The position numbers and the translations under genes are program-made. Shown piece after piece: positions 2,064 through 40,980 of a stretch of DNA of 64,000 nucleotides; positions within the stretch are counted from its first letter, which is position 1, and each line of letters starts with the position of its first letter. Below the pieces are notes generated by a model. The model saw nothing but the letters and a program-made list of their open reading frames with translations, made no database searches and had not been told where the DNA came from. This stretch comes from Gammaproteobacteria bacterium. Its GTDB lineage: Bacteria; Pseudomonadota; Gammaproteobacteria; Steroidobacterales; Steroidobacteraceae. Location of the stretch: assembly GCA_052389755.1 (NCBI GenBank), contig JBQTHP010000099.1:3562-67561 (forward strand), in the 5' to 3' direction.

Positions 2064-2392
2064 GCGTTCGAGCTCGCCCCGACGAGGTCGTCATGCGCCG
2101 CTGATGGGCCGTGTCGGGTGCGTTTACAGGTGAGGGTAACGTCCGACCCGCGGCCGAACCGCTTTTCAGACGCGGCAAGCGCGGCCGCATCCAACACGAA
2201 TGACAGCAATTTTAGCTGCAATGCGGGAAGTGTCGCGCGCGCGTGCGACCGACACTCATAGATGGTCGAGGCACGAATCACGGTACGTCCGAACAATATG
2301 TGACCGACGTCACGTCGATGACTTTGACGCTCGCCTTTGACCATAATTGTGCACGTGCAGCAAGCCCATGATTCTCAAGCCGGAACTCAAGG

Positions 2393-2408
2393 TGGTACGC
2401 CCGTTGCT
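2393..2408 (+). promoter_or_regulatory. sigma-54 (RpoN) -24/-12 promoter for the first PEP-CTERM gene
   Basis: TGGTACGCCCGTTGCT versus consensus TGGCACG-N4-TTGCW: one mismatch outside N4 and correct GG/GC spacing. It lies 35 nt upstream of the GTG at 2443. A GAFTGA-type activator (prsR) is encoded in the window. Confidence 0.7.
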
Positions 2409-2442: not shown

Positions 2443-3246
2443 GTGAAGAAGCTGACGACACTCGCATTTCTCGCCGGTGCCTTGGCCGGTGGCACCGCCT
2501 CGGCGACGATCATCGAGGGGGACAGTCTGCAGAACCTGCTCACGGAGGCAGGCGCGAACGTCAACGTCCACACCGATCAGTACCAGCCGGATGAGTGGTG
2601 GGTGCTTGGCGCCGCGAGAGGCGGCGTTGCCGAACTGATTTTCGAGCTGGCCGGCTTTGCGAACGAGACCGGTTTCGGCGTCTACGACATCCTCAACCCG
2701 GAGAGGCGACTCACCATCTTCTCCGGTCCGAATGAAGCGGGCGACCACGGCGCGCTGCGAATCCGGAACGATGAGACGAACGAGTTTTGTGCCGGCCTGA
2801 TGTTCGGCTCGAGCTCGTGCGCAATATTCGGTTCGAGGATGTTTGGCTTCTTCCTCGACAGCCCGGACGGGCTCTTCTTTTCCGAGACGGAGCTGAATCC
2901 GTACGGATTCGATCACCTGGTCGCCTTTCAGGGCGGCGAGGGGCGCGGCTCCATCAACGGATACGAGTGGCTGGCGAACGAGTTCGTCCTCGCGTGGGAG
3001 GATCTGCGCGGCGGCGGCGATCGCGACTATGACGATTTCGGCGTGATCGTCGAGTCGGTTCGCAGCGTTCCGGAACCCGCAACGCTCGCGCTGTTGGGCA
3101 TGGGACTCATCGGCATGGCATTCTTCGCCCGCCGAAACGATTTCGCAGGCTTGCAGCGGCGCGCGCCGACGCTTTCCCGTCCCACAGGTCGGGACGCCGT
3201 CCGCGCGGCCAGCGACCCTGCAGAGCCTCGCGCGCGCAGCGCGTGA
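2443..3246 (+). CDS. PEP-CTERM sorting-domain protein with a DUF4114-like domain and an unusual C-terminal extension
   Basis: GTG start follows AAGGA (2433-2437). Signal peptide is VKKLTTLAFLAGALAGGTASA. The block WEDLRGGGDRDYDDFGVIVESV resembles DUF4114. PEP-CTERM motif VPEPATLALLGMGLIGMAFFARR (3067-3135) is followed by 36 extra codons before TGA. Confidence 0.85.
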   Translation: MKKLTTLAFLAGALAGGTASATIIEGDSLQNLLTEAGANVNVHTDQYQPDEWWVLGAARGGVAELIFELAGFANETGFGVYDILNPERRLTIFSGPNEAGDHGALRIRNDETNEFCAGLMFGSSSCAIFGSRMFGFFLDSPDGLFFSETELNPYGFDHLVAFQGGEGRGSINGYEWLANEFVLAWEDLRGGGDRDYDDFGVIVESVRSVPEPATLALLGMGLIGMAFFARRNDFAGLQRRAPTLSRPTGRDAVRAASDPAEPRARSA

Positions 3247-4219
3247 CGTCGGCCGCAGTGATCAGGCGGTTCGTGCCCTCCGTAATCGTGATCGGCCGCT
3301 CCGTATTCTCCCGCAGCGTCGCGCAAGGGATTCCGAGATATGTCGTCTCCTCCTGCACGCCGCCCGAATCCGTGATCGCGATCGCGCAGGTAGCTACGAG
3401 ATTCATGAACTCGGTATAGCCGAGCGGTTCCGTGAGATGCAGACGAGATGCCGCGCGCATCCGATCGAGCAACCCGAACTCCTCCAGACGCTTGCGCGTG
3501 CGCGGGTGAAGCGCGAAAACCACGTCGAGCTCACGAGACATCTGCACGAGGCTCTCCACCAACTCCTCCAGCTTGTCGCGCTGATCCACGTTCGACGGCC
3601 GATGCAGCGTTACCACTCCGTACGGCTTCCCCGCGAGACCGAAACGCTGCCGTATGCGGCTCGCCTGGATCCGCTCCCGGAGCATCTCGAACGAATCGAT
3701 CATGATGTTGCCGATGCGATCGATGCGCGAGCGGGGAATCCCCTCCGCGACGAGGTTCTCGTCGGCATCGGGCGATGGCGTCCAGAGCAGATCAGCAATG
3801 GCGTCCGTGACGAGCCGATTGATTTCTTCCGGCATCGTGCGATCGCGGCTACGCAATCCGGCCTCAAGGTGAACCACCGGAATCCAGAGTTTCGCTCCCA
3901 CCAGAGCGCATGCCGCGGTCGCGTTGACGTCGCCGACGACGACGATGACATCCGGCGGCCCCGCCAGGCAGACGGCTTCGTAAGCGATCATCGTCCGGCC
4001 GGTCTGTTCCGCATGCGTGCCGCTGCCGATCTCGAGGTGGTGCTTCGGCTCGGGTAGCCGCAGGTCCCTGAAGAAGGCCTCGGACATGTTCGCGTCGTAG
4101 TGCTGACCCGTGTGGATGATGCTCGGCGTACACCATTGCTCGTCGACGAGCGCGTGGAAGAGCGGCGCGACTTTCATGAAATTCGGGCGCGCCGCCGCGA
4201 TCAGGTGTATCTGCTTCAA
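3107..4219 (-). CDS. wecB: UDP-N-acetylglucosamine 2-epimerase (non-hydrolysing)
   Basis: 370 aa starting MKQIHLIAAARPNFMKVAPLF, with HTGQHYD, VVGDVNATAA and DSGGVQEETTYLGIPC blocks typical of WecB/MnaA. The 3' 140 nt overlap the convergent PEP-CTERM gene. Confidence 0.9.
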   Translation of the reverse strand: MKQIHLIAAARPNFMKVAPLFHALVDEQWCTPSIIHTGQHYDANMSEAFFRDLRLPEPKHHLEIGSGTHAEQTGRTMIAYEAVCLAGPPDVIVVVGDVNATAACALVGAKLWIPVVHLEAGLRSRDRTMPEEINRLVTDAIADLLWTPSPDADENLVAEGIPRSRIDRIGNIMIDSFEMLRERIQASRIRQRFGLAGKPYGVVTLHRPSNVDQRDKLEELVESLVQMSRELDVVFALHPRTRKRLEEFGLLDRMRAASRLHLTEPLGYTEFMNLVATCAIAITDSGGVQEETTYLGIPCATLRENTERPITITEGTNRLITAADVTRCAREALQGRWPRGRRPDLWDGKASARAAASLRNRFGGRRMPCR

Positions 4220-4332
4220 GTTCTTCAGGTTGGGTTTTGGGCGATTGCGGACGGGTGGAAACCGTCAAATTCATTTTACAGGTGCTGTTTCCCGACTTCG
4301 CAGTTCTAAATGAATTCAATCAATTATGTGCA

Positions 4333-4348
4333 CGGCACGCAACGTGCA
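4333..4348 (+). promoter_or_regulatory. sigma-54 (RpoN) -24/-12 promoter for the second PEP-CTERM gene
   Basis: CGGCACGCAACGTGCA: GGCACG is perfect and -12 is GTGCA (one mismatch to TTGCA), with correct spacing. It lies 50 nt upstream of the ATG at 4399. Confidence 0.7.
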
Positions 4349-4398
4349 TGGAAGTGTCCCGTTTGCGTGATTCGTCAAAAATTCCAAGGAGAATAATT

Positions 4399-4941
4399 AT
4401 GCGTCGGGTCTTACTTGCACTCGTTGCAGTGGGTTGGGCGGCCGGAGCGCAGGCGCTTCCGGTGAACGTCCCGGTCCCCGGCAACGCCTTTATCAACTTC
4501 AACGGCCTCGACTGGGCCTGGGCTGCACCTTGCAACCCCGTGGAACCCAGTTGCGGCGTCATTGATCTGAGCTTCCAGTCGCAGTTCGGCTGGCGCCTGC
4601 CGAGCGCTTCCGAAATTCTGCTGCATCCGGCTGCGACGGACTTCGTGTTCGCCGGCGCCAATGTGCCTCTCGGCGGCTCGGATGCAAACGGCGCGCACTT
4701 CCAGTTCGGTTCTCCGGGTGGGGCTGCGGCTTGCGCTGCGCCGTACTTCAGCGTGGCCCATTTCCATTGCGATTGGGGCAACGGCGACTCCGGGCTCTGG
4801 GCCGGCCTGCCGGGCACCCAGTCGTTCTGGGAAGCACTGGTCGTTCGCGACGGTCAGGTTCCCGAGCCGGGTTCTCTGGCACTCTTCGGTTTGGGCCTCG
4901 TAGCGCTGGGACTCATTCGGCGTCGCGCGCGCACGCAGTAG
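4399..4941 (+). CDS. PEP-CTERM sorting-domain protein (small secreted cargo)
   Basis: AAGGAG (4386-4391) precedes the ATG at 4399. Signal peptide is MRRVLLALVAVGWAAGAQA. The terminal VPEPGSLALFGLGLVALGLIRRRARTQ is a textbook PEP-CTERM domain at the extreme C-terminus. Confidence 0.9.
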   Translation: MRRVLLALVAVGWAAGAQALPVNVPVPGNAFINFNGLDWAWAAPCNPVEPSCGVIDLSFQSQFGWRLPSASEILLHPAATDFVFAGANVPLGGSDANGAHFQFGSPGGAAACAAPYFSVAHFHCDWGNGDSGLWAGLPGTQSFWEALVVRDGQVPEPGSLALFGLGLVALGLIRRRARTQ

Positions 4942-4957
4942 TTCAAACAGAACGTCC

Positions 4958-7807
4958 TTAACGCTCACTCGACGGCACGTCTCGCGACGTGCCGTCTTGT
5001 TTTGTGCGCATCGATTCGAGCAGCGCGCGCACGTCGCCCGAACTGGAGAAGGGTGGCGCGGAGTGCACGAGGGCTTCAAGGTGCGTGCGCGCTTCCTCCT
5101 TCGAGCCAGACCTCAAGAGCGCGACTGCCAGGTGATACTGCACTTCGCTGTTGCCCGAAGCCGCGGAGTGCGCGGCCTTCAGCACGGGGACAGCCTCCTG
5201 GTGCTTGCCGGACTGAACGAGAGCCCAGCCGTATGTGTCGGCGACCTCGGGAACCTTCGGACTGGCGGCGTAGGCGTTCTTCGCCAGTGCAAGTGCGGAG
5301 CCGATGTCGCCGGATTCGAGTTTCAGCCACGCGAGGTTGTTCTGCGCCACGGCGTGGCCCGGCGTCTGCCTGAGAATCGTCTCATACTCGCCGATCGCCG
5401 CGATTCGATTCCCGCTGTCCTGAAAGTCTTGCGCGAGCATCAGACGGACGCTCACGTTATTCGGGTCGCGGTCGAGCCACGTACGCAGGGGTTCCTGCCG
5501 CTCGGGCGCACGCATCGCGCGCCTTGCGGCGTATTCCTTGAGTGCGAGCACCGGCGTCGGCGTTGCGGCGTTGGCGGTCGCGTACAGGCGCGCGGCGTCC
5601 GCGTATGCACCCCTGCGCATTGCGAGATCGGCCTCGAGAATCTGCACGACTGAATTGGGAGCCTGGGCCTTGCGAAGACGTCCGAGATGCTCCGCGGCTC
5701 CGGCGAGATCGCCTGCGTCGATCGAAATGGTGGTTTCGAACACCAGTGCGGGCCAGTAATTCGGATCAGCCTTCAGAGCCCGTGTGTTGGCCTCCCTGGC
5801 GTCCGGCATGCGGTCGTCCATGAGGTAGGCGCGCGCCAACGCGGCAAGAAGAGTCGCCTGGTTGGGAAGCTCGCCCACCAGATCCTCGAACATCGCTGTC
5901 GCTTCGGTGGCCTGTCGCTGCGCGAGTAAGGCGAGACCCGTCAGCGCCCGAACTTCCGGATCCTTCGGCCTGAGTTTGCGCGCCTCGGCGAGTGCTGCAG
6001 ACGCCAGCCCTACGTCGCCGCGGGACAGATACAGGCGAGCGAGGCTGATTCGGGGTTGCACGGCGCTTGCAGATATGCGGCGTGCCTTTTCGAAATGCTG
6101 AATGGCAGAGTCAATATCACGGTCCGCCGCCGCCCCGTGAGCCTTTCCCATCAACGCAGCCAGATTATCGGCGTCGAGCCGCAGCGCGCGGTCGAAAGCA
6201 GCCGACGCGGCTGCGCGATCTCCGCTTGTCCATTCGAGCAGCCCCAGCGCGACCCAGGCGCGGGCCTCGTCGGGCGTCAGTTGCGTCACCTGGGTCACGA
6301 GCGCTCGCGCACCAGCCGCGTCTTTTGCCACCAGCAGACCGCGAGCGGCAACCAGCAGTCCCTCGTCGTCTTTGGGATGAGCTGCCGCAAACGCGCGCGC
6401 TTCCGAGATTGCTTCTTCGCGGCGATCGGTCGCGAGCAACGCCGTGAGGAATAACATCTCTCGGCGGTGCAACGACGCGTCGTCAGCGGGCAAAGCTCTC
6501 AGGAGTGTCAAGGCGTCCGCCGCACGCCCCCCGACGAGGTATGCCGCAGCCAGATCGAGCGTTCGCGACGCGTCGTCTGGCGCAGTCTGTCGGCCGCGCT
6601 TGAAGTAGTCGATCGCGGTGGCGAAATCGCCCAGCAGCACGTTCGCTCGGCCCGCCAAGGCGAGCAGATCGGGATCGACAGCCGTCGCTGGCGTGCCGAG
6701 CGACTGCAGCGCCTCATCCGGCCGGTTCTGCCTCAGTTGTACGTCGGCGAGCAGCTTGCGGGCGACGAGACTGTCCGGGCTTGCGCTCACCGCCCCCTCG
6801 AGGTGCACCTCGGCCTGAGCGAGGTTGCCCTGCGCCGCGGCAACCGCGCCCATCAGCAGATTGCCCTGTCGGCTTTCGGGAGTGCGGCTCAGTAATTGCT
6901 GCAGGGCTGTCTGAGCCTCGTCCAAACGACTGCGCTTGATCGCCAGCCGCGCCTTGAGTGTGAGCACCGGCCCAGCGTTCGGCGAGAGCTTTTCGGCCGC
7001 CTCCAGGCGGCGCTCGGCCGATTCCAGCTGATTCAGCGCGAGCTCGGTCTCACCCAACGCAACGAGCACCACGACTTCGCTGCCGGAGCGCTTGGAGCGT
7101 TGTGCGAGCGCGAGCGCCTTCGTAAAGCTGCTGCGCGCGAGCTCGAGTTGACCCGCTCGGGCGTGCCACGAGCCCATCACGACTTGTGCGTCGAGATGCT
7201 CGGGAGCCAGCTCAACCGCTTTGTCCAGCTGTGCTTTCGCGGCTCCCGAATCCCCGAGCTCATCCAGCGCGGAGACGAGACCCAGGCGCGAGGCGGTATC
7301 GGCCGGACTCCTGGCGATCGCATCCTCGAACTCGACCCGCGCATCGGAGAACCGCCGCAGCCCGAGCAGTGCCTGCCCGCGAAGTTGCAGCGCTGTAGTG
7401 TCGGGGCTCTCGGCAAGCTTCGGATCCGAAAGCTGCTCGAGAGCTGCTTGAAATTTGCCTTGCCCCACAAGGCTTTGAGCGACCGGCAGGGTCAGGAGCT
7501 CCGGGGCCGTCCCCAGCTCCCGCGCCTTGCGCAATTCGATCTCGGCCGACTCGAACTCGCCGTTGCCCAGCAGCGCCTGCGCGAACTGCAGACGGAACTG
7601 TGCATTCTGCGGCTCATCGCGCACGAGGTTTCTCAGATCGACGAGCGCCGCCCGATAGTCGCCCGCCTCGAAACTGGCCTCGACTCGTGCAACCCGGGAT
7701 TCGCGGTCGGAGCCGAGGCCGCAACCGAACAGAACAGTCGCCATGGCACACGCAGCCACAACGCTCGATTGATGACCCCATGCCTGGAGCCGTGTGAGAG
7801 CACGCAT
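4958..7807 (-). CDS. prsT: PEP-CTERM system TPR-repeat lipoprotein PrsT
   Basis: 949 aa made almost entirely of TPR repeats. N-terminal lipobox VLFGC. Size, architecture and neighbourhood match TIGR02917-type PrsT. Confidence 0.85.
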   Translation of the reverse strand: MRALTRLQAWGHQSSVVAACAMATVLFGCGLGSDRESRVARVEASFEAGDYRAALVDLRNLVRDEPQNAQFRLQFAQALLGNGEFESAEIELRKARELGTAPELLTLPVAQSLVGQGKFQAALEQLSDPKLAESPDTTALQLRGQALLGLRRFSDARVEFEDAIARSPADTASRLGLVSALDELGDSGAAKAQLDKAVELAPEHLDAQVVMGSWHARAGQLELARSSFTKALALAQRSKRSGSEVVVLVALGETELALNQLESAERRLEAAEKLSPNAGPVLTLKARLAIKRSRLDEAQTALQQLLSRTPESRQGNLLMGAVAAAQGNLAQAEVHLEGAVSASPDSLVARKLLADVQLRQNRPDEALQSLGTPATAVDPDLLALAGRANVLLGDFATAIDYFKRGRQTAPDDASRTLDLAAAYLVGGRAADALTLLRALPADDASLHRREMLFLTALLATDRREEAISEARAFAAAHPKDDEGLLVAARGLLVAKDAAGARALVTQVTQLTPDEARAWVALGLLEWTSGDRAAASAAFDRALRLDADNLAALMGKAHGAAADRDIDSAIQHFEKARRISASAVQPRISLARLYLSRGDVGLASAALAEARKLRPKDPEVRALTGLALLAQRQATEATAMFEDLVGELPNQATLLAALARAYLMDDRMPDAREANTRALKADPNYWPALVFETTISIDAGDLAGAAEHLGRLRKAQAPNSVVQILEADLAMRRGAYADAARLYATANAATPTPVLALKEYAARRAMRAPERQEPLRTWLDRDPNNVSVRLMLAQDFQDSGNRIAAIGEYETILRQTPGHAVAQNNLAWLKLESGDIGSALALAKNAYAASPKVPEVADTYGWALVQSGKHQEAVPVLKAAHSAASGNSEVQYHLAVALLRSGSKEEARTHLEALVHSAPPFSSSGDVRALLESMRTKQDGTSRDVPSSER
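4971..5005 (+). terminator. Rho-independent terminator for the PEP-CTERM gene, embedded in the 3' coding end of prsT
   Basis: Perfect 11-bp stem GACGGCACGTC / GACGTGCCGTC with loop TCGC, followed by TTGTTTTGT on the + strand. It starts 30 nt after the stop at 4941. Confidence 0.65.
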
Positions 7808-9388: not shown

Positions 9389-10903
9389 TTACGGAACGGT
9401 CTTGTTCACCAGATTCGTCATGGCGCTCTCGAGACCGCCGGCCGTGTACGCCTTCATCCCGAAGTAGTACGTCCCTGGCGCCAGGTTGTCCACGACGTAC
9501 GTGGCGAGTCCCGGGTTCGCGACCTGAATCGTCTGTGTGAGGCTGCCAGGGCTCGTCCCGTAATGGATGCGATAACCCGCCAGACCGACAATGGCTGATC
9601 CATCGTCGTTCAGCGTCGGCGCCGTCCAGTTGAGAGTGACGCTGCCCAACGAAACCTGGACTACTGCGATGGCGAACGCCGCGAGCGAGGCGTTCGCACG
9701 CCCGTCACTCACAGAGATCACGACATTCCCGTAACTACCGACTTCGGCTGCAGTGGGAGTCCCCGTCAGTCCGCCCGTCTGCGCGTTGAAGCTCGCCCAG
9801 GCAGGCTTGTTCTGGATGCTGAACGTGAGCGGGTCGCCATTCGCGTCGTTGGCGCTCGGTTGGAAGTTGTAGGCTGTTCCCACGTTCACGCTCGTCAAGG
9901 GCGTTCCGGAGATCGTGGGAGCGGTGTTCGTCACCGTGATCGTGAACGCGGGCAGCGATGCGGACGCGCTGCCGTCGCTCACGGTGATGACGATGCCGCT
10001 GTGCGCGCCGACGTGTGCGGACGCGGGTGTGCCCGACAACCGGCCGGTGGACGTGGTGAACGTAGCCCACGCCGGCTTGTTCTGGATGGAGAACGTCAGG
10101 TTATTGCCGTCAGGATCCGATGCAGTGGGCTGAAACGCGTACGCGCTGCCGCTCGCGACCGACGTACCCGGTGTGCCCGAGATCATGGGCGCGCGGTTCG
10201 CGGGCGCCTGAACCTGGATCGTGAATGCGGGCAGCGCGGTGCTCGCTCTGCCATCGCTCACGGCGATCGTGATATTCGCGTAAGTGCCGACCTGCGTCGC
10301 CCCGGGCGTTCCTGCGAGCCGACCGGTGGTCGTTGAGAAGCTCGCCCACACTGGCTTGTTAACGATCGTGAAAGACAGCGCGTCGCCGTTCGCATCGGCC
10401 GCGGTCGGCTGGAACACGTACGCCTGACCCGTACCGACCGAAAGTGGAGGCGATCCGGAGATTGTCGGCGGTGTGTTCTGCGGCGGCGGTGGCGGCGCGT
10501 TCCGCGGCCGTACGGTGATTCTGAATGTGATGCTCGGGGAAGTGCTCGCCCCATCCGACGCCGTGACCTGAATCTCGCCGGTGTCGCCGACATCCGCATC
10601 GGACGGCGTGCCGCGCAGCTCGCCGTTCACCGAGCTGAACGTGGTCCATTGCGGCTGGTTGACGATCGAGAACGTGATCGTATCGCCGTCGGGATCCGAG
10701 GCGGTTGGACGATATACGTAGAGCTGGTCGACATCCGCGGTCGTGACTGGCGCACCGGACAGAACCGGCGGCTCGTTCAGCTTGCCTGGTTCGGTGAGCG
10801 ACGCTTCCTCCTCTTCGCCGCCGCACGCCGTCAGCATCCCTGACACAGCCGCGCAGCACAGCACCGCACGCACGATCCCCAAAGCCCCGAGCGTCCTCAT
10901 CAT
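9389..10903 (-). CDS. secreted lipoprotein with four Ig-like (He_PIG/cadherin-like) repeats and a C-terminal fibronectin type III domain
   Basis: GGGGGA lies 6 nt before the ATG at 10903. Lipobox is GMLTAC. There are four repeats of about 95 aa with the pattern ISGxP...Y.FQPTA.D.DGD.L.FSI.NKP.WA.F...TG.L.GTP. The terminal VTLNWTAPT...GYRIHYGTS...YYFGMKAY is FN3-like. Confidence 0.8.
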   Translation of the reverse strand: MMRTLGALGIVRAVLCCAAVSGMLTACGGEEEEASLTEPGKLNEPPVLSGAPVTTADVDQLYVYRPTASDPDGDTITFSIVNQPQWTTFSSVNGELRGTPSDADVGDTGEIQVTASDGASTSPSITFRITVRPRNAPPPPPQNTPPTISGSPPLSVGTGQAYVFQPTAADANGDALSFTIVNKPVWASFSTTTGRLAGTPGATQVGTYANITIAVSDGRASTALPAFTIQVQAPANRAPMISGTPGTSVASGSAYAFQPTASDPDGNNLTFSIQNKPAWATFTTSTGRLSGTPASAHVGAHSGIVITVSDGSASASLPAFTITVTNTAPTISGTPLTSVNVGTAYNFQPSANDANGDPLTFSIQNKPAWASFNAQTGGLTGTPTAAEVGSYGNVVISVSDGRANASLAAFAIAVVQVSLGSVTLNWTAPTLNDDGSAIVGLAGYRIHYGTSPGSLTQTIQVANPGLATYVVDNLAPGTYYFGMKAYTAGGLESAMTNLVNKTVP

Positions 10904-11309
10904 GCGAAATCCCCCGGTAAACAAGACATGTCCACGGCGCAGGGCCGTGCAAAAAACCGGGGTTCAGCTGGAATGACGGCACGCATCCGCAAGCGAATCG
11001 GTGCGGTGCCGGCAGCCCCGCTGTCTCGGCAGATCCTCGCGAACCTGCTGGACCGGAAGCTTTGCGTCCCCGCCTCACGACGGGTTTGCCCTTACGCTCG
11101 GGCTTGAGTGAATCGCGTGCGAGGTGAAGTTGCAATCTGTCGGCATCTTCGGACGTAGGCGTTTTGCGACGCCGATGAGCCGCGATTCAACTTAAAGCAC
11201 GCGATGCGAGCCCTTCGCGTGCGACGATCGTTGCCGGCGGGGAGGGCGAACACGGCGCGCTGCGCTTCTTCCAGCGACGGCTCCGGCCGGAGTGCTCTAC
11301 CATTTGCGG

Positions 11310-13370
11310 ATGCTTAGTTACGTCATTTCTGCCGCGGTCTTCCTGATTCTCCTGATCGCCGGGCTCACGGTCTGGCGACGGCGGCTAGCGGGCTCGTCGC
11401 TGGCGCCGGCCTTCGGGGCACAGCTCGTATGGTCGGTGGTGCTCGCCAGAGCCGCGGTTAGTGCCACCGTGCCGCTGGCGCTGGTAGTAGTGATCGAGTA
11501 TTTGCGCACGCTCGCCTGGGCCATGGTGCTCGCGAGGTGCCTTGCCGGATCGTCCGATCCTCGGTCGATTCGACGCGCGCTACGACCGCTGTCGGCGCTG
11601 ATCATCGTCGTCGTCGCCGGGCTGATGGCCGGCATGTTTTCGGGTCAGCTGGCCTCGGTCGATGCGTATCTGGAGCGCTGGTGGGTGTGGGGGGCTTTGA
11701 TTCTGTCCATAGCGGGGCTCGTTCTGGTCGAGCAAGTCGCGCGCAACACGCGGTCTGCGCAGGAATGGCGCCTGAAGTACGTCTGGCTCTCCATAGGCGC
11801 GCTCTTCACGCTGGATCTGTGTCTGTATTCGATTGCGCTGCTGCGCGGCGGAATTGACCCGGCCCTGTGGGTTGCACGCGGCCTCATCAACGCAGTGCTC
11901 GGCGGCCTGCTGGCCCTTGGACTCACCCGAATCGTGGGCTGGCAGTCCGCATCGTTCCTGTCTCCCAGGCTCGTGTTTTTCAACGCCACTCTGCTCGGGG
12001 CCGCCTTCTACGTATTCGCGATGGCGGGCGCGAGCTACTTCATACGCGAGTTCGGCGGCAGCTGGGGAGCGGCGGGTCAAGCGGTGTTCCTCGCCGGCGC
12101 TGCCGTTGTGCTCGCTGTGGCCGTTCTGTCCGAACAGGCTCGCGCCTGGGCGCGGGTGACACTCGCCAAACACTTGTTTCCGTACCGCTATGACTTTCGC
12201 CGCGAGTGGCAGAACTTGACGCGCGCGCTTTCGCGTTCGGACGGCGTTCCGGTGTACGAGCGCATCGTGAAAGTCATGGCGATCTCGGTCAATTGCGGCA
12301 GCGGCGGGCTGTGGTTGCGTGACGCGGACGGTGTCTTCGTTCCGAGAGGCGGGGATCTTGCACATCCCACCGCACCTCGAGAGCCGCCCGGCAGCTCGTT
12401 TCTCGAGCATCTGGGGCGCCACGAATGGATCTGCGATCTCGACAAGATCAGGGGCAGCGGCGAAAAGGGCGGAAGTCCCGAACCTCCGGCGTGGATGCTG
12501 GACCACCCGAAGATCTGGCTCATCGTTCCACTGGTGTGCGAGGACACGCTGGTCGGATTCGTCGCGATCGGACATCCGCTGGCGAGGATGCGTTTGACCT
12601 GGGAGGAAATCGATCTCCTTCGCGCGGCCGGCCGGCAGGTGGCGAGCTATCTGGCATTCGAGCAGGCTGCAAAACGGCTCGCCGAGGCGCACCAGTTCGA
12701 AGCCGTCAATCGCATCTCGACGATCCTGATGCACGACCTGAAGCATCTGGTCGCGCAGCAGGCGCTCGTCGTCGAGAACGCAGCGCGACATCGGGGCAAT
12801 CCGGAGTTCTTCGACGACGCCATCCTCACGATCGAAAACTCCGTCAAGCGGATGAACCGGCTCATGGACGAGCTAAAGAGCGGCGTGCTGGCGGAGCACG
12901 GCCATCGCGTCGATCTGGCTGAAGTGTGCGCCGAGGTCACGCAGCGATGCGGTAGCCGCAAACCCTCCCCAACCCTGGTGGCTTACGACCGGAACGTCGA
13001 AGTCGTCCTGAATCGCGACCGCCTGCTCCACGCGCTCGAGCACATCGTGCGTAATGCGCAGGATGCGACGCCGTCCTCCGGCACCGTCTCCGTGCAACTG
13101 CGCAAGGTGGCAGAGCGCGCCGTCATCGAAGTGGTCGACACTGGAGTTGGCATGGACCCTCAGTTCATCCGCGACCGTCTGTTCCGGCCATTCGACACGA
13201 CCAAGGGAGGGGATGGCACCGGCATCGGCGCCTTCCAGGCGCGCGAGTTCGTCCGCAAGTGCGGCGGGAGCATCGAAGTCGAGAGCGCCGTCGGGGCGGG
13301 AACCCGATTTCTGGTGAGCCTGCCCCTGGCGCCTCCGCTGGGTGCCGTCGAACCTGCCGGTGCAGCATGA
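11310..13370 (+). CDS. prsK: PEP-CTERM system sensor histidine kinase PrsK
   Basis: Multi-TM N-terminal half, a central GAF-like region, H-box MHDLKHLV and G-boxes DTGVGM / GTGIGAFQAREF. It is coupled to prsR by an ATGA overlap. The ORF-track start at 11292 is GTG; the ATG at 11310 is preferred. Confidence 0.85.
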   Translation: MLSYVISAAVFLILLIAGLTVWRRRLAGSSLAPAFGAQLVWSVVLARAAVSATVPLALVVVIEYLRTLAWAMVLARCLAGSSDPRSIRRALRPLSALIIVVVAGLMAGMFSGQLASVDAYLERWWVWGALILSIAGLVLVEQVARNTRSAQEWRLKYVWLSIGALFTLDLCLYSIALLRGGIDPALWVARGLINAVLGGLLALGLTRIVGWQSASFLSPRLVFFNATLLGAAFYVFAMAGASYFIREFGGSWGAAGQAVFLAGAAVVLAVAVLSEQARAWARVTLAKHLFPYRYDFRREWQNLTRALSRSDGVPVYERIVKVMAISVNCGSGGLWLRDADGVFVPRGGDLAHPTAPREPPGSSFLEHLGRHEWICDLDKIRGSGEKGGSPEPPAWMLDHPKIWLIVPLVCEDTLVGFVAIGHPLARMRLTWEEIDLLRAAGRQVASYLAFEQAAKRLAEAHQFEAVNRISTILMHDLKHLVAQQALVVENAARHRGNPEFFDDAILTIENSVKRMNRLMDELKSGVLAEHGHRVDLAEVCAEVTQRCGSRKPSPTLVAYDRNVEVVLNRDRLLHALEHIVRNAQDATPSSGTVSVQLRKVAERAVIEVVDTGVGMDPQFIRDRLFRPFDTTKGGDGTGIGAFQAREFVRKCGGSIEVESAVGAGTRFLVSLPLAPPLGAVEPAGAA

Positions 13371-14734
13371 GCGCCGCACCCCACAAACTGCTCATCGTCG
13401 AGGACGATCCTGGCCTGCAGCGCCAGCTCAAATGGGCATTGGACGGATTCGACGTGCGATGCGCCGCCACGCGCGACGAAGCCATCGCGCTGCTCAACCG
13501 AAACGAACCCGCGGTAGTGCTCCAGGATCTGGGTCTGCCCCCCGATCCCGGGGGCGTCGAAGAAGGCTTCGCCACCATCGAGGAGATCCAGCGCATCGCA
13601 CCGCGCGCGAAGATCATCGTAGTCACCGGTCAGGAAGGCCGCGACCATGCGCTACGTGCGATCGCGGCAGGCGCTTTCGACTTCTGTCAGAAGCCCGTCG
13701 ACACCCAACTGCTGTCGATCGTCGTCGACCGGGCGATTCGCATGTACGAGCTCGAAGCAGAGATCCAGCGGCTCAGCGAGACTCGCCCCGCGTCCGCGCT
13801 CGATGGCGTCATTGCCGCCAGCGCGTCGATGCTGAAGGTCTGCCGAATGATCGAACGTCTGGCGCCGACCGGGGCCACGGTCCTGCTTCTGGGCGAGAGC
13901 GGAACCGGCAAAGAGCGTCTCGCCCGTGCGCTGCACACGCTGAGCTCGCGCGCGTCGAAGCCCATGGTCGCCATCAATTGCGCGGCCATTCCCGAGACCC
14001 TTCTCGAAAGCGAACTGTTCGGCCACGAACGGGGGGCGTTCACGGGCGCCGTCAAGCAGACCATCGGCAGGATCGAAGGCGCCGCTGGCGGAACGCTGTT
14101 TCTGGACGAGATCGGCGACATGCCGCTCGCCCTCCAGACGAAGCTCCTTCGGTTCCTGCAGGAGCGGGTCATCGAGCGCATCGGTGGGCGCGAGCTCGTT
14201 GGCGTCGACGTACGAATCGTGGCTGCGACCAACCGAGACCTCGAAGCCGCAATCCAGCAGGGAACCTTTCGCTCCGATCTCTACTACAGGTTGAGCGAAG
14301 TTACGGTCGCGATCCCGCCGCTGCGCGAGCGGGAATCGGACGCAGTGCTGATTGCCACCTATCTGTTGCAGGAAGCCGCCCGGCGGCACGGACGGGGTGC
14401 TCTGCGCTTCTCACCAGACGCAGTACGGGCGATCGAGCAGAATCCGTGGCCGGGTAATGTGCGCGAGCTCGAGAACCGCGTGAACCGGGCGGCAATCATG
14501 ATCGAGGGCAGACTGGTCAGTAGCCAGGATCTCGGGCTCGCCCCAACGGAGGAGACCGACGACTTCCTGAATCTGCGGGACGTGCGGCAGCGGGCCGAAG
14601 CGCAGGCGGTTCGTCGGGCGCTCGCTATCACCGCGGGGAACGTCTCAAAGGCGGCGGAGCTCCTCGGAGTCACGCGGCCAACGCTCTATGCACTGATGGA
14701 ACGAAGCTCGATCCGGCAGGAGGGCGCGGGATGA
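13367..14734 (+). CDS. prsR: sigma-54-dependent response regulator PrsR (PEP-CTERM-box regulator)
   Basis: The start ATG overlaps the prsK stop (ATGA at 13367-13370). Receiver domain KLLIVEDDPGL, Walker A GESGTGKE, GAFTGA motif (ERGAFTGAV) and C-terminal Fis-type HTH GNVSKAAELLGVTRPTLY. Confidence 0.9.
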   Translation: MSAAPHKLLIVEDDPGLQRQLKWALDGFDVRCAATRDEAIALLNRNEPAVVLQDLGLPPDPGGVEEGFATIEEIQRIAPRAKIIVVTGQEGRDHALRAIAAGAFDFCQKPVDTQLLSIVVDRAIRMYELEAEIQRLSETRPASALDGVIAASASMLKVCRMIERLAPTGATVLLLGESGTGKERLARALHTLSSRASKPMVAINCAAIPETLLESELFGHERGAFTGAVKQTIGRIEGAAGGTLFLDEIGDMPLALQTKLLRFLQERVIERIGGRELVGVDVRIVAATNRDLEAAIQQGTFRSDLYYRLSEVTVAIPPLRERESDAVLIATYLLQEAARRHGRGALRFSPDAVRAIEQNPWPGNVRELENRVNRAAIMIEGRLVSSQDLGLAPTEETDDFLNLRDVRQRAEAQAVRRALAITAGNVSKAAELLGVTRPTLYALMERSSIRQEGAG

Positions 14735-39529: not shown

Positions 39530-39621
39530 CCAGCGAAAGGGCAAACCCGTCGTAAGGCGGGGACGCAAAGCCACCGGTCCGTGGGATTCGAGGATAGCGG
39601 GGTTGCCGGATGAAACGCTGG
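39530..39621 (+). promoter_or_regulatory. c-di-GMP-I (GEMM-I) riboswitch aptamer
   Basis: CCAGCG-AAAGGGCAAACC-CGUC-GUAA-GGCG-GGGACGCAAAGCCACCGG...AUAGCGGGGUUGCCGGAUG-AAA-CGCUGG. All conserved GEMM-I blocks are present in order, with a GNRA-capped hairpin and a closing P1 CCAGCG/CGCUGG. It lies 111 nt upstream of the ATG at 39733. Confidence 0.85.
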
Positions 39622-39732: not shown

Positions 39733-40980
39733 ATGAAACGTAGGGATTTCCTCGCTACGTCCGCGGGCCTCGCCGGTGCGATGCTTCCGGCTCTGGGACG
39801 GGGTCTACCGTGCCCTCCGCCCGCATTGAGCGCAGTTGGTGGAACGTCGTCCACGAACCCCTGCAATGCACCGGGCACTGCGCCGGCTTGGTTCACAGGC
39901 ATGGGTGACAGGACCTGGGCCGCGCCTGTGAGCAACTGGCTGGGAGCGAGTGGTGTAAAGGATCCGCTCGCGGACACGATCAACCGCGGGAACGACGGAC
40001 ACTCCGCGCTCATCAGCAACTGGACGGGCATGCTGGCGGATGACACGCGTCGCATGATCGCCATGCTCGGGAACGGAGGGCATGCGGGTTACAACGGCAA
40101 CGAGGTTTACTCGTGCGACCTCGGCCTGAGTACGCCGGCTTGGGTGCGGCGTCGCAACGCGACACCATCTGTGCCGGGAGTAGATCTGACGAAATGGCCG
40201 GACGGCAGTCCCGTGGCGGACCACACCGCGCAGTTACAGTGCGCGGGCGGAGGCCGCTGGTTCAAGTTCGGCCTCGCCTCAACGAACTACAACGGCTGGG
40301 CTCACTACGAGAGTTGGTGGGAGTACAGCCTCGAGAGTGAGGACTACATCGATCGGTCGAGTTCGGCTTACGCCTTGAGCGGCTCGGTGCTTGCGGTCGA
40401 TGGCCTCGCGCTCTTCGATCCGATCGACCGGAGTTTCCTGGTCTTTCACAAGAACTTCGTGTCGCCGGGGATTGGTGTTGTTGATTCCAATACGCTCGCA
40501 CTCAAACGAGGTGCAAACCCAGGCGGCTTCGCCACCTCCAACACACTGACCGCAGCGATCGACACGAAGCGCCGTCTGCTTCTCGTGCGCATGGATATCG
40601 GCTGTGAAGTGTGGAACCTCGAAAACTTCACCAAGCTCGCGACGATCACACCTAGCGGTGCGCAGCCAACTCTGCACAGCTCACTGTACTATCACGAACC
40701 CTCTGATGCCTTCATTACTTGGGATGGTGGCAGCAGCATCCGAAAGCTCAAGCCTACCGTGAATGCGCAGGGCACCAATTACACCGCGGTTGCGTGGTCA
40801 AGCGTGACGCCTGCTGGTGGTAGCACGGCCACTCCTCCGGGAAGTGGTCCGGAGCAGGGCATGTATAACAAAGTGCAGCTTCTGCAGAACATGGGAAACG
40901 GACAGAGCGCGCTCGTCATCGTGCCGCAGTACGCCGCACCCGACGTGTTCGTGTTCAAGCTCCCTGCGACAGGCATCTGA
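39733..40980 (+). CDS. Tat-signal secreted protein of unknown function (possibly beta-propeller-like)
   Basis: GGGGAG SD at 39721-39726. Twin-arginine motif MKRRDFLATSAG...ALGRG, then PCPPP...GGTS..PC. The remainder is rich in short W/G/N beta-like segments (GNGGHAGYNGNEVYSCDL). No family could be assigned. Confidence 0.75.
   Translation: MKRRDFLATSAGLAGAMLPALGRGLPCPPPALSAVGGTSSTNPCNAPGTAPAWFTGMGDRTWAAPVSNWLGASGVKDPLADTINRGNDGHSALISNWTGMLADDTRRMIAMLGNGGHAGYNGNEVYSCDLGLSTPAWVRRRNATPSVPGVDLTKWPDGSPVADHTAQLQCAGGGRWFKFGLASTNYNGWAHYESWWEYSLESEDYIDRSSSAYALSGSVLAVDGLALFDPIDRSFLVFHKNFVSPGIGVVDSNTLALKRGANPGGFATSNTLTAAIDTKRRLLLVRMDIGCEVWNLENFTKLATITPSGAQPTLHSSLYYHEPSDAFITWDGGSSIRKLKPTVNAQGTNYTAVAWSSVTPAGGSTATPPGSGPEQGMYNKVQLLQNMGNGQSALVIVPQYAAPDVFVFKLPATGI

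Follow-up and report, generated by a model that had tools for sequence, protein, structure and literature searches.

The PEP-CTERM genes and the prs locus

The window, by which we mean the whole stretch of 64,000 nucleotides that was analyzed, contains two PEP-CTERM genes on its forward strand. Gene 1 (2443-3246, +) encodes a protein with a signal peptide, a DUF4114 domain (Pfam, 35.6 bits), and a PEP-CTERM domain (Pfam, 30.7 bits; TIGR02595, 24.3 bits against a cut-off of 16), and its GTG start codon at 2443 is preceded by AAGGA at 2433-2437. Gene 2 (4399-4941, +) likewise encodes a PEP-CTERM domain (Pfam PF07589, 30.8 bits; TIGR02595, 24.5 bits against the same cut-off of 16). Both downstream genes encode the domain defined by TIGR02595, as do the genes downstream of the regulatory region described by Haft et al. 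(2006; PMC1569441), and the PF07589 matches agree. We searched the rest of the genome assembly (3.78 Mb in 271 contigs) for further PEP-CTERM genes and found none beyond these two, both of which lie within the window.

Gene 1 extends approximately 35 codons beyond its PEP-CTERM basic cluster (3140-3246), antisense to the 3' end of wecB. In a close relative, the gene 1 protein is 240 amino acids long and stops soon after the PEP-CTERM signal (its last residues before the stop codon being ...FFARRRVRAYIARS). Because the relative's protein ends near the signal, the extension is specific to the present assembly or strain.

The genes for the regulatory proteins lie nearby. prsT (4958-7807, -) matches TIGR02917 with 492 bits (cut-off 312), prsK (11292-13370, +) matches TIGR02916 with 620.6 bits (cut-off 300), and prsR (13367-14734, +), which encodes a sigma-54-dependent response regulator, matches TIGR02915 with 655.7 bits (cut-off 502.6). 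Haft et al. (2006; PMC1569441) reported that the phylogenetic profile of the regulatory element matches those of PrsK, PrsR, and PrsT, and all three are encoded here with scores above their cut-offs. The window also encodes an XrtA-type polysaccharide deacetylase that scores above its curated cut-off. The ATG of prsR at 13367 overlaps the stop codon of prsK (ATGA, window 13367-13370), an arrangement that suggests translational coupling.

Two rpoN genes are present in the genome, on contigs C254 (13483-14865, -) and C168 (4536-5864, +), with TIGR02395 matches of 452.8 and 439.4 bits (cut-off 277). A perfect sigma-54 consensus sequence, TGGCACGGACCTTGCT, occurs at position 3815 (+) of contig C168, approximately 700 nt upstream of the second of these paralogues. 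Elsewhere in the window, two c-di-GMP-I riboswitch aptamers score above the gathering score, one at 11008-11100 (-; 62.7 bits) and the other at 39532-39611 (+; 65.9 bits). The former precedes the gene for an Ig-repeat/FN3 protein at 9389-10924 (-), and the latter precedes an open reading frame at 39733-40980 with a weak TAT-signal match.

A sigma-54 promoter upstream of gene 1

The initial annotation had placed a near-consensus -24/-12 element at 2393-2408, upstream of gene 1, and its letters prove to be right. The sequence TGGTACGCCCGTTGCT (2393-2408, +) agrees with the sigma-54 consensus at 11 of 12 positions, with GG at 2394-2395 and GC at 2406-2407 in the correct GG-N10-GC spacing. Its -24 hexamer is TGGTAC, not TGGCAC, which is compatible with the older sigma-54 consensus TGGYAYR-N4-TTGCA. 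The element ends 34 nt before the GTG, a distance within the published range of 23-221 nt between the end of the 17-nt sigma-54 motif 2 and the start codon (Haft et al., 2006; PMC1569441).

Taken alone, the pattern match is weak evidence, since the sigma-54 pattern with at most one mismatch occurs twice in the 64-kb window where 0.66 matches are expected; it is conservation that makes the evidence strong. We compared gene 1 with homologues drawn from related genomes, metagenome contigs, and a large protein collection, and counted an element as equivalent if it had at least 10 of the 12 consensus positions and the correct GG-N10-GC spacing. Of 22 distinct upstream regions of homologues, 18 contain an equivalent element 28-330 nt ahead of the start codon, while the chance expectation is approximately 0.012 elements per 300-nt region (303 candidates in 7.56 million genome positions). 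On the basis of its sequence and its conservation, we judge that this is a real sigma-54 promoter and one of an already described kind. The earlier proposal that this promoter is linked to PrsR also gains support from the conservation of the element in homologues, from the presence of two rpoN genes, and from the location of prsK and prsR 9 kb from the gene 1 promoter.

Assuming the usual sigma-54 geometry, with C2407 taken as -12, transcription would start near 2419 on the forward strand and produce a leader of approximately 24 nt. A comparison with Rfam showed no RNA family in the upstream region of gene 1 or in its vicinity.

Predicted PrsR boxes upstream of gene 1

We next consider the sequences to which an activator of this promoter might bind. 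In an unbiased count of 6-mers in the 300 nt upstream of the -24 elements of 23 related PEP-CTERM genes, the most over-represented were TTACAG, TTTACA, TTGACA, and TGTCGA (z of 8-10). These assemble into YGTCG-N6-YTKACR, a 17-bp imperfect dyad (TGTCR-N7-YGACA), and we re-derived this box consensus from 29 sites in other genomes. All 28 of the boxes in the 23 related promoters have the N6 spacing, with none at N5, N7, or N8. In one arrangement a single box stands 52-75 nt from the -24 element; in the other, two boxes stand at approximately 128-141 and 230-243 nt.

Two such boxes lie upstream of gene 1. The distal box, TGTCGGGTGCGTTTACA (2112-2128, +), matches YGTCG-N6-YTKACR and ends in TTTACA, as does the 17-nt motif 1 for which Haft et al. 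(2006; PMC1569441) predicted binding by PrsR. The proximal box, CGTCGATGACTTTGACG (2313-2329, +), ends in TTGACG, a variant of TTTACA; in relatives, TTGACA is a frequent ending. The proximal box stands 63 nt from the TGG at 2393, which is close to the mean spacer of 62.8 nt (range 32-92 nt) that Haft et al. (2006; PMC1569441) gave for the distance from the 3'-most copy of motif 1 to motif 2. The distal box stands 264 nt upstream of the -24 element and 201 nt beyond the proximal box, and its distance exceeds that of all 28 comparison boxes, of which the largest is 243 nt. No second promoter with at least 10 of 12 consensus positions was found approximately 63 nt downstream of the distal box, and a candidate middle box near 2213-2247, between the two boxes, was rejected because its best sequence, TGTCGCGCGCGCGTGCG, scores -6.7 bits.

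The pattern YGTCGN6YTKACR occurs four times in the window where 1.07 matches are expected, and two of these four are the boxes described here, both on the strand of the gene. We then scored the genome with a position weight matrix built only from the 29 sites in other genomes. For the distal box the score is 18.5 bits, and of the 7.56 million positions in the genome only 8 reach this value. For the proximal box it is 12.8 bits, which 71 positions attain; a site of this quality would turn up in the canonical 24-nt spacer window with a probability of approximately 2e-4. The invariant columns of the matrix are partly circular because its sites were picked by a regular expression; this circularity affects neither the independent scan of the genome nor the comparison to the close relative. 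The other high-scoring boxes in the genome (on contigs C248, C57, C74, C245, and others) were rejected as candidates: they fall within coding DNA, no sigma-54 element follows them, and we therefore regard them as chance matches.

Among homologues, one whose protein is 66% identical to that of gene 1 (L136) has a canonical box, CGTCGGCTGGCTTTACA, that is orthologous to the proximal box, shares the context cgtcacgtcg with it, and has the same 63-nt spacer; in another (L137), the spacer of the box measures 62 nt. Eight orthologues from related genomes share the conserved Fis-type helix-turn-helix of PrsR (GNxSxAAELLGxTRPTLYxL), and an equal DNA specificity is therefore expected. The PEP-CTERM genes in the genomes of these orthologues carry the same boxes. 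In the literature we came across no biochemical demonstration, for any species, that PrsR binds motif 1. The sequence comparisons suggest that PrsR probably binds the two conserved boxes at 2313-2329 and 2112-2128.

A 6+1+6 inverted repeat, CGACGT-C-ACGTCG, is present at 2306-2318, where it overlaps the 5' half of the proximal box. The region that contains it has 14 short inverted repeats where shuffled sequences have approximately 7, and in the close relative the left arm of the repeat has one change (CCACGT).

Only two of the 303 sigma-54 candidates are preceded by two boxes, namely that of gene 1 and one at a locus on contig C142. At the latter (C142 approximately 3300-3770, -; locus L035, C142:2600-4400), predicted PrsR boxes lie 139 and 241 nt upstream of the sigma-54 element TGGCATGCGCGTTGCT. 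There is no PEP-CTERM gene behind this promoter, which is followed after approximately 180 nt by a strong intrinsic terminator, cagccccgcgaaagcggggctagttttttc. The predicted transcript is rich in A-R-N repeats (AACAACAGCAAGAAAA, AAUAACAAGAAGAAGA) and has a folding z of -2.6. In three relatives (L003, L023, L024), the same two-box layout precedes a gene 1 paralogue, after which come a comparable A/C-rich 3' UTR and a terminator. Given this paralogue in the relatives, the C142 locus is either what a deletion left behind or a small RNA that arose from such a remnant and is driven by PrsR and sigma-54.

Conservation of the boxes and the promoter in a close relative

The close relative, whose gene 1 protein is 95% identical to the one studied here, was found in four samples (L132-L135) as Logan contigs; in two cases (L132 and L133) the contig carries the full order gene 1 - wecB - gene 2 - prsT. 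The distal box is identical in the relative at 17 of 17 positions. The proximal box is identical at 16 of 17, with the one change falling in the N6 spacer, and the gene 1 promoter at 15 of 16, with the change falling in the N4 spacer and all consensus positions kept. Altogether, the boxes and the promoter comprise 34 specified positions, all of which are unchanged, compared to a background divergence of 13% (P of approximately 0.005-0.008).

The close relative carries an insertion of 27 nt, CCTTCTGGGCAACGAACGCGATCGCGG, immediately behind the -12 element (window 2409, alignment A1). With this insertion, the predicted leader would be approximately 51 nt in the relative compared to approximately 24 nt here. 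The sequence of the start site is not conserved in the relative.

The region upstream of gene 2

The region upstream of gene 2 has a similar layout. A predicted sigma-54 promoter, CGGCACGCAACGTGCA (4333-4348, +), agrees with the consensus at 10 of 12 positions, has GG at 4334-4335 and GC at 4346-4347 in the correct spacing, is identical in the close relative, and lies 50 nt before the ATG at 4399. Another candidate, TGGAAG..TTTGC at 4349-4366, was rejected because its GG-to-GC spacing is 3 nt too long.

Upstream of the promoter lies a variant of the predicted PrsR box, CGTCAAATTCATTTTACA (4263-4280, +), which has an N7 spacer instead of N6 and is atypical among the predicted boxes in this respect. 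The distance from this box to the promoter is 52 nt, within the spacer range of 32-92 nt given by Haft et al. (2006). The decamer TTTACAGGTG has only two copies in the genome, one in the gene 2 box and the other at 2123, within the distal gene 1 box. The close relative retains both half-sites of the gene 2 box as well as its N7 spacing, and the two changes fall in the spacer; because the extra base is kept in the relative, it is not an assembly error.

The palindrome at 2350-2359

The initial annotation also reported a perfect 10-bp palindrome upstream of the gene 1 promoter, and TGCACGTGCA is indeed present at 2350-2359, 33 nt from the -24 element. Its arms were likened to NtrC enhancer half-sites, and the palindrome was proposed to be the enhancer of PrsR, dimers of which would bind TGCAC/GTGCA half-sites at both PEP-CTERM genes. 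The half-sites do resemble those of NtrC, and an inverted TGCAC/GTGCA pair common to both upstream regions is mildly unusual, being found in 67 of 3000 shuffles (2.2%). The same half-sites are present at gene 2, as the annotation stated, but there they (TGCAC at 4329-4333 and GTGCA at 4344-4348) flank, and overlap, the -24/-12 element of that gene itself, and their spacing differs from that at gene 1. The enhancer sites of NtrC at glnAp2 are TGCACC-N5-GGTGCA, a 17-bp dyad whose hexamers are 5 nt apart. The likeness to NtrC sites does not extend to this spacing, since the pentamers abut (0 nt) at gene 1 and are 10 nt apart at gene 2. Because these two spacings are so different, one dimeric protein could not read both pairs.

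The comparison with other genomes bears more directly on this proposal. In the close relative, the palindrome reads TGCTAGCGCA, with three substitutions and both half-sites lost, while PrsR, the promoter, and the boxes are kept. The TGCAC..GTGCA pair is absent from every homologous promoter examined, although the recognition helix of PrsR is conserved, and none of these promoters has a palindrome of any kind between the box and the promoter. The 6-mers of the palindrome occur at background frequency in the 23 related upstream regions. A position 33 nt from the -24 element would also be unusually near for an enhancer. Given these observations, it is exceedingly improbable that the palindrome is the site at which PrsR acts.

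A palindrome of this size is expected by chance. When the 379-nt intergenic region was shuffled with its dinucleotides preserved, 924 of 2000 shuffles (46%) held at least one perfect 10-bp palindrome; for the 120 nt that immediately precede the -24 element, the share was 14%. The palindrome lies within 2330-2392, the most diverged segment, in which 17 of 63 positions differ in the close relative. The decamer TGCACGTGCA has 15 copies in the genome, and the 14 others are in DNA with the strong third-position GC periodicity of coding sequence. Non-coding enrichment of TGCAC-Nx-GTGCA was found in the genome at none of the spacings from 0 to 12. A role as a genome-wide motif is ruled out by these results, and a role as a degenerate second sigma-54 promoter by the lack of a GG-N10-GC register.

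The copy at 2350-2359 is the sole non-coding one, and this could be taken to indicate the operator of a second, strain-specific regulator that would modulate looping or repress a weak sigma-70-type promoter. A sigma-70-like sequence, ATGACT-18-CATAAT, does occur at 2318-2347, where it matches 9 of 12 positions and ends 3 nt before the palindrome, such that its predicted start would fall inside the palindrome. Its -35 hexamer, however, overlaps the proximal PrsR box, and an operator with no other non-coding copy in the genome would have no regulon. These points, together with the loss of the palindrome in the close relative and its expected occurrence by chance, make such an operator very unlikely. 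A related idea draws on the inverted pair at both genes: the hexamer pair TGCACG/CGTGCA might be an operator that the strain has gained recently for one more regulator, which would compete with RpoN at gene 2 and prevent loop formation at gene 1. If true, this would add a strain-specific layer of control on top of PrsR. We mention it because an inverted pair is shared in only 2.2% of shuffles, and we give it hardly any credence.

The spacer that contains the palindrome could instead matter as a whole. According to this interpretation, 2330-2392 is no more than a bendable or IHF-bound looping segment in which an IHF-like sequence at 2361-2373 is the functional part. The sequence in question, the speculative AATCATGGGCTTG (2361-2373, -), was recognized by eye. 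It matches WATCAANNNNTTR with one mismatch and is centred approximately 52 nt upstream of the predicted start; a comparable sequence, AATCAAttatgTG, precedes gene 2 at 4318-4330, and himA is encoded in the genome. In the close relative, however, 3 of the 13 positions differ, including the W position, and a 63-nt spacer may loop without a bending protein. We consider this interpretation unlikely, and because the IHF-like sequence is poorly conserved we give IHF-assisted looping little weight, although it is compatible with, and not exclusive of, activation by PrsR from the upstream boxes.

The palindrome itself, for the function of which we found no evidence, is most likely a chance sequence. 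It lies in what would be a poorly conserved looping spacer, and the comparisons above indicate that it has no specific role there.

A model for the regulation of gene 1

In our preferred reading, to which we assign a probability of roughly 0.78, the 379 nt upstream of gene 1 form a standard PEP-CTERM regulatory region as described by Haft et al. (2006). According to this model, RNA polymerase containing RpoN would bind the -24/-12 element at 2393-2408 and form a closed complex that would remain inactive until PrsR, phosphorylated and having PrsK as its partner kinase, bound the 17-nt dyad boxes YGTCG-N6-YTKACR. PrsR would assemble into an oligomer on the boxes, reach the polymerase via DNA looping, and open the promoter using ATP, so that transcription would begin near 2419 with its short leader. 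We infer that gene 2 would be controlled from the same layout, with its variant box at 4263-4280 and its promoter at 4333-4348.

This model has several consequences. The annotation of gene 1 is corrected to that of a predicted sigma-54/PrsR target, and footprinting or mutagenesis would be directed at the boxes at 2313-2329 and 2112-2128 rather than at the palindrome. The predicted PrsR site is sharpened to YGTCG-N6-YTKACR, with N6 invariant in 28 sites and two recurrent layouts, the second of which has its two boxes approximately 100 nt apart. The sharpened site offers a concrete target for PrsR binding tests.

Comparison with known systems

PrsR is a member of the NtrC family, with receiver, AAA+, and Fis-type helix-turn-helix domains. 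The predicted PrsR box, TGTCR-N7-YGACA, is a 17-bp dyad as are the NtrC sites, but its half-site sequence differs from theirs. The palindrome TGCACGTGCA has half-site letters in common with the NtrC site but not the N5 spacing, and it is not conserved.

PEP-CTERM genes under RpoN control have been studied experimentally in betaproteobacteria. The pepA gene of Aquincola tertiaricarbonis RN12 is RpoN1-dependent, with a start mapped downstream of TGGCAC/CTGCTT, and the same paper mentions a predicted upstream enhancer (PMC9850573). A PEP-CTERM gene of Zoogloea resiniphila MMB is under the control of RpoN and PrsK-PrsR, as far as the summary of that work in PMC9012009 relates. Gene 1 resembles these genes in being a PEP-CTERM gene with an RpoN-type promoter, which here is predicted from sequence. 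It differs from them in that they belong to the PepA family and were tested experimentally, whereas gene 1 is a DUF4114/PEP-CTERM gene known from its sequence, and its named homologues come from Steroidobacteraceae MAGs.

The closest comparison is with the region described by Haft et al. (2006; PMC1569441). The region upstream of gene 1 shares with it a box that ends in TTTACA (distal) or a close variant (proximal), the 63-nt spacer, a -24 GG and -12 GC element that ends 34 nt short of the start codon, the organization as a single-gene PEP-CTERM unit, and a long upstream region. It differs in the TTGACG ending of the proximal box and in the presence of a second box 264 nt upstream; in addition, the spacer of the gene 2 box has one extra base, and there are only two PEP-CTERM genes here. 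With these variations, the locus is an ordinary instance of the regulatory architecture described in 2006.
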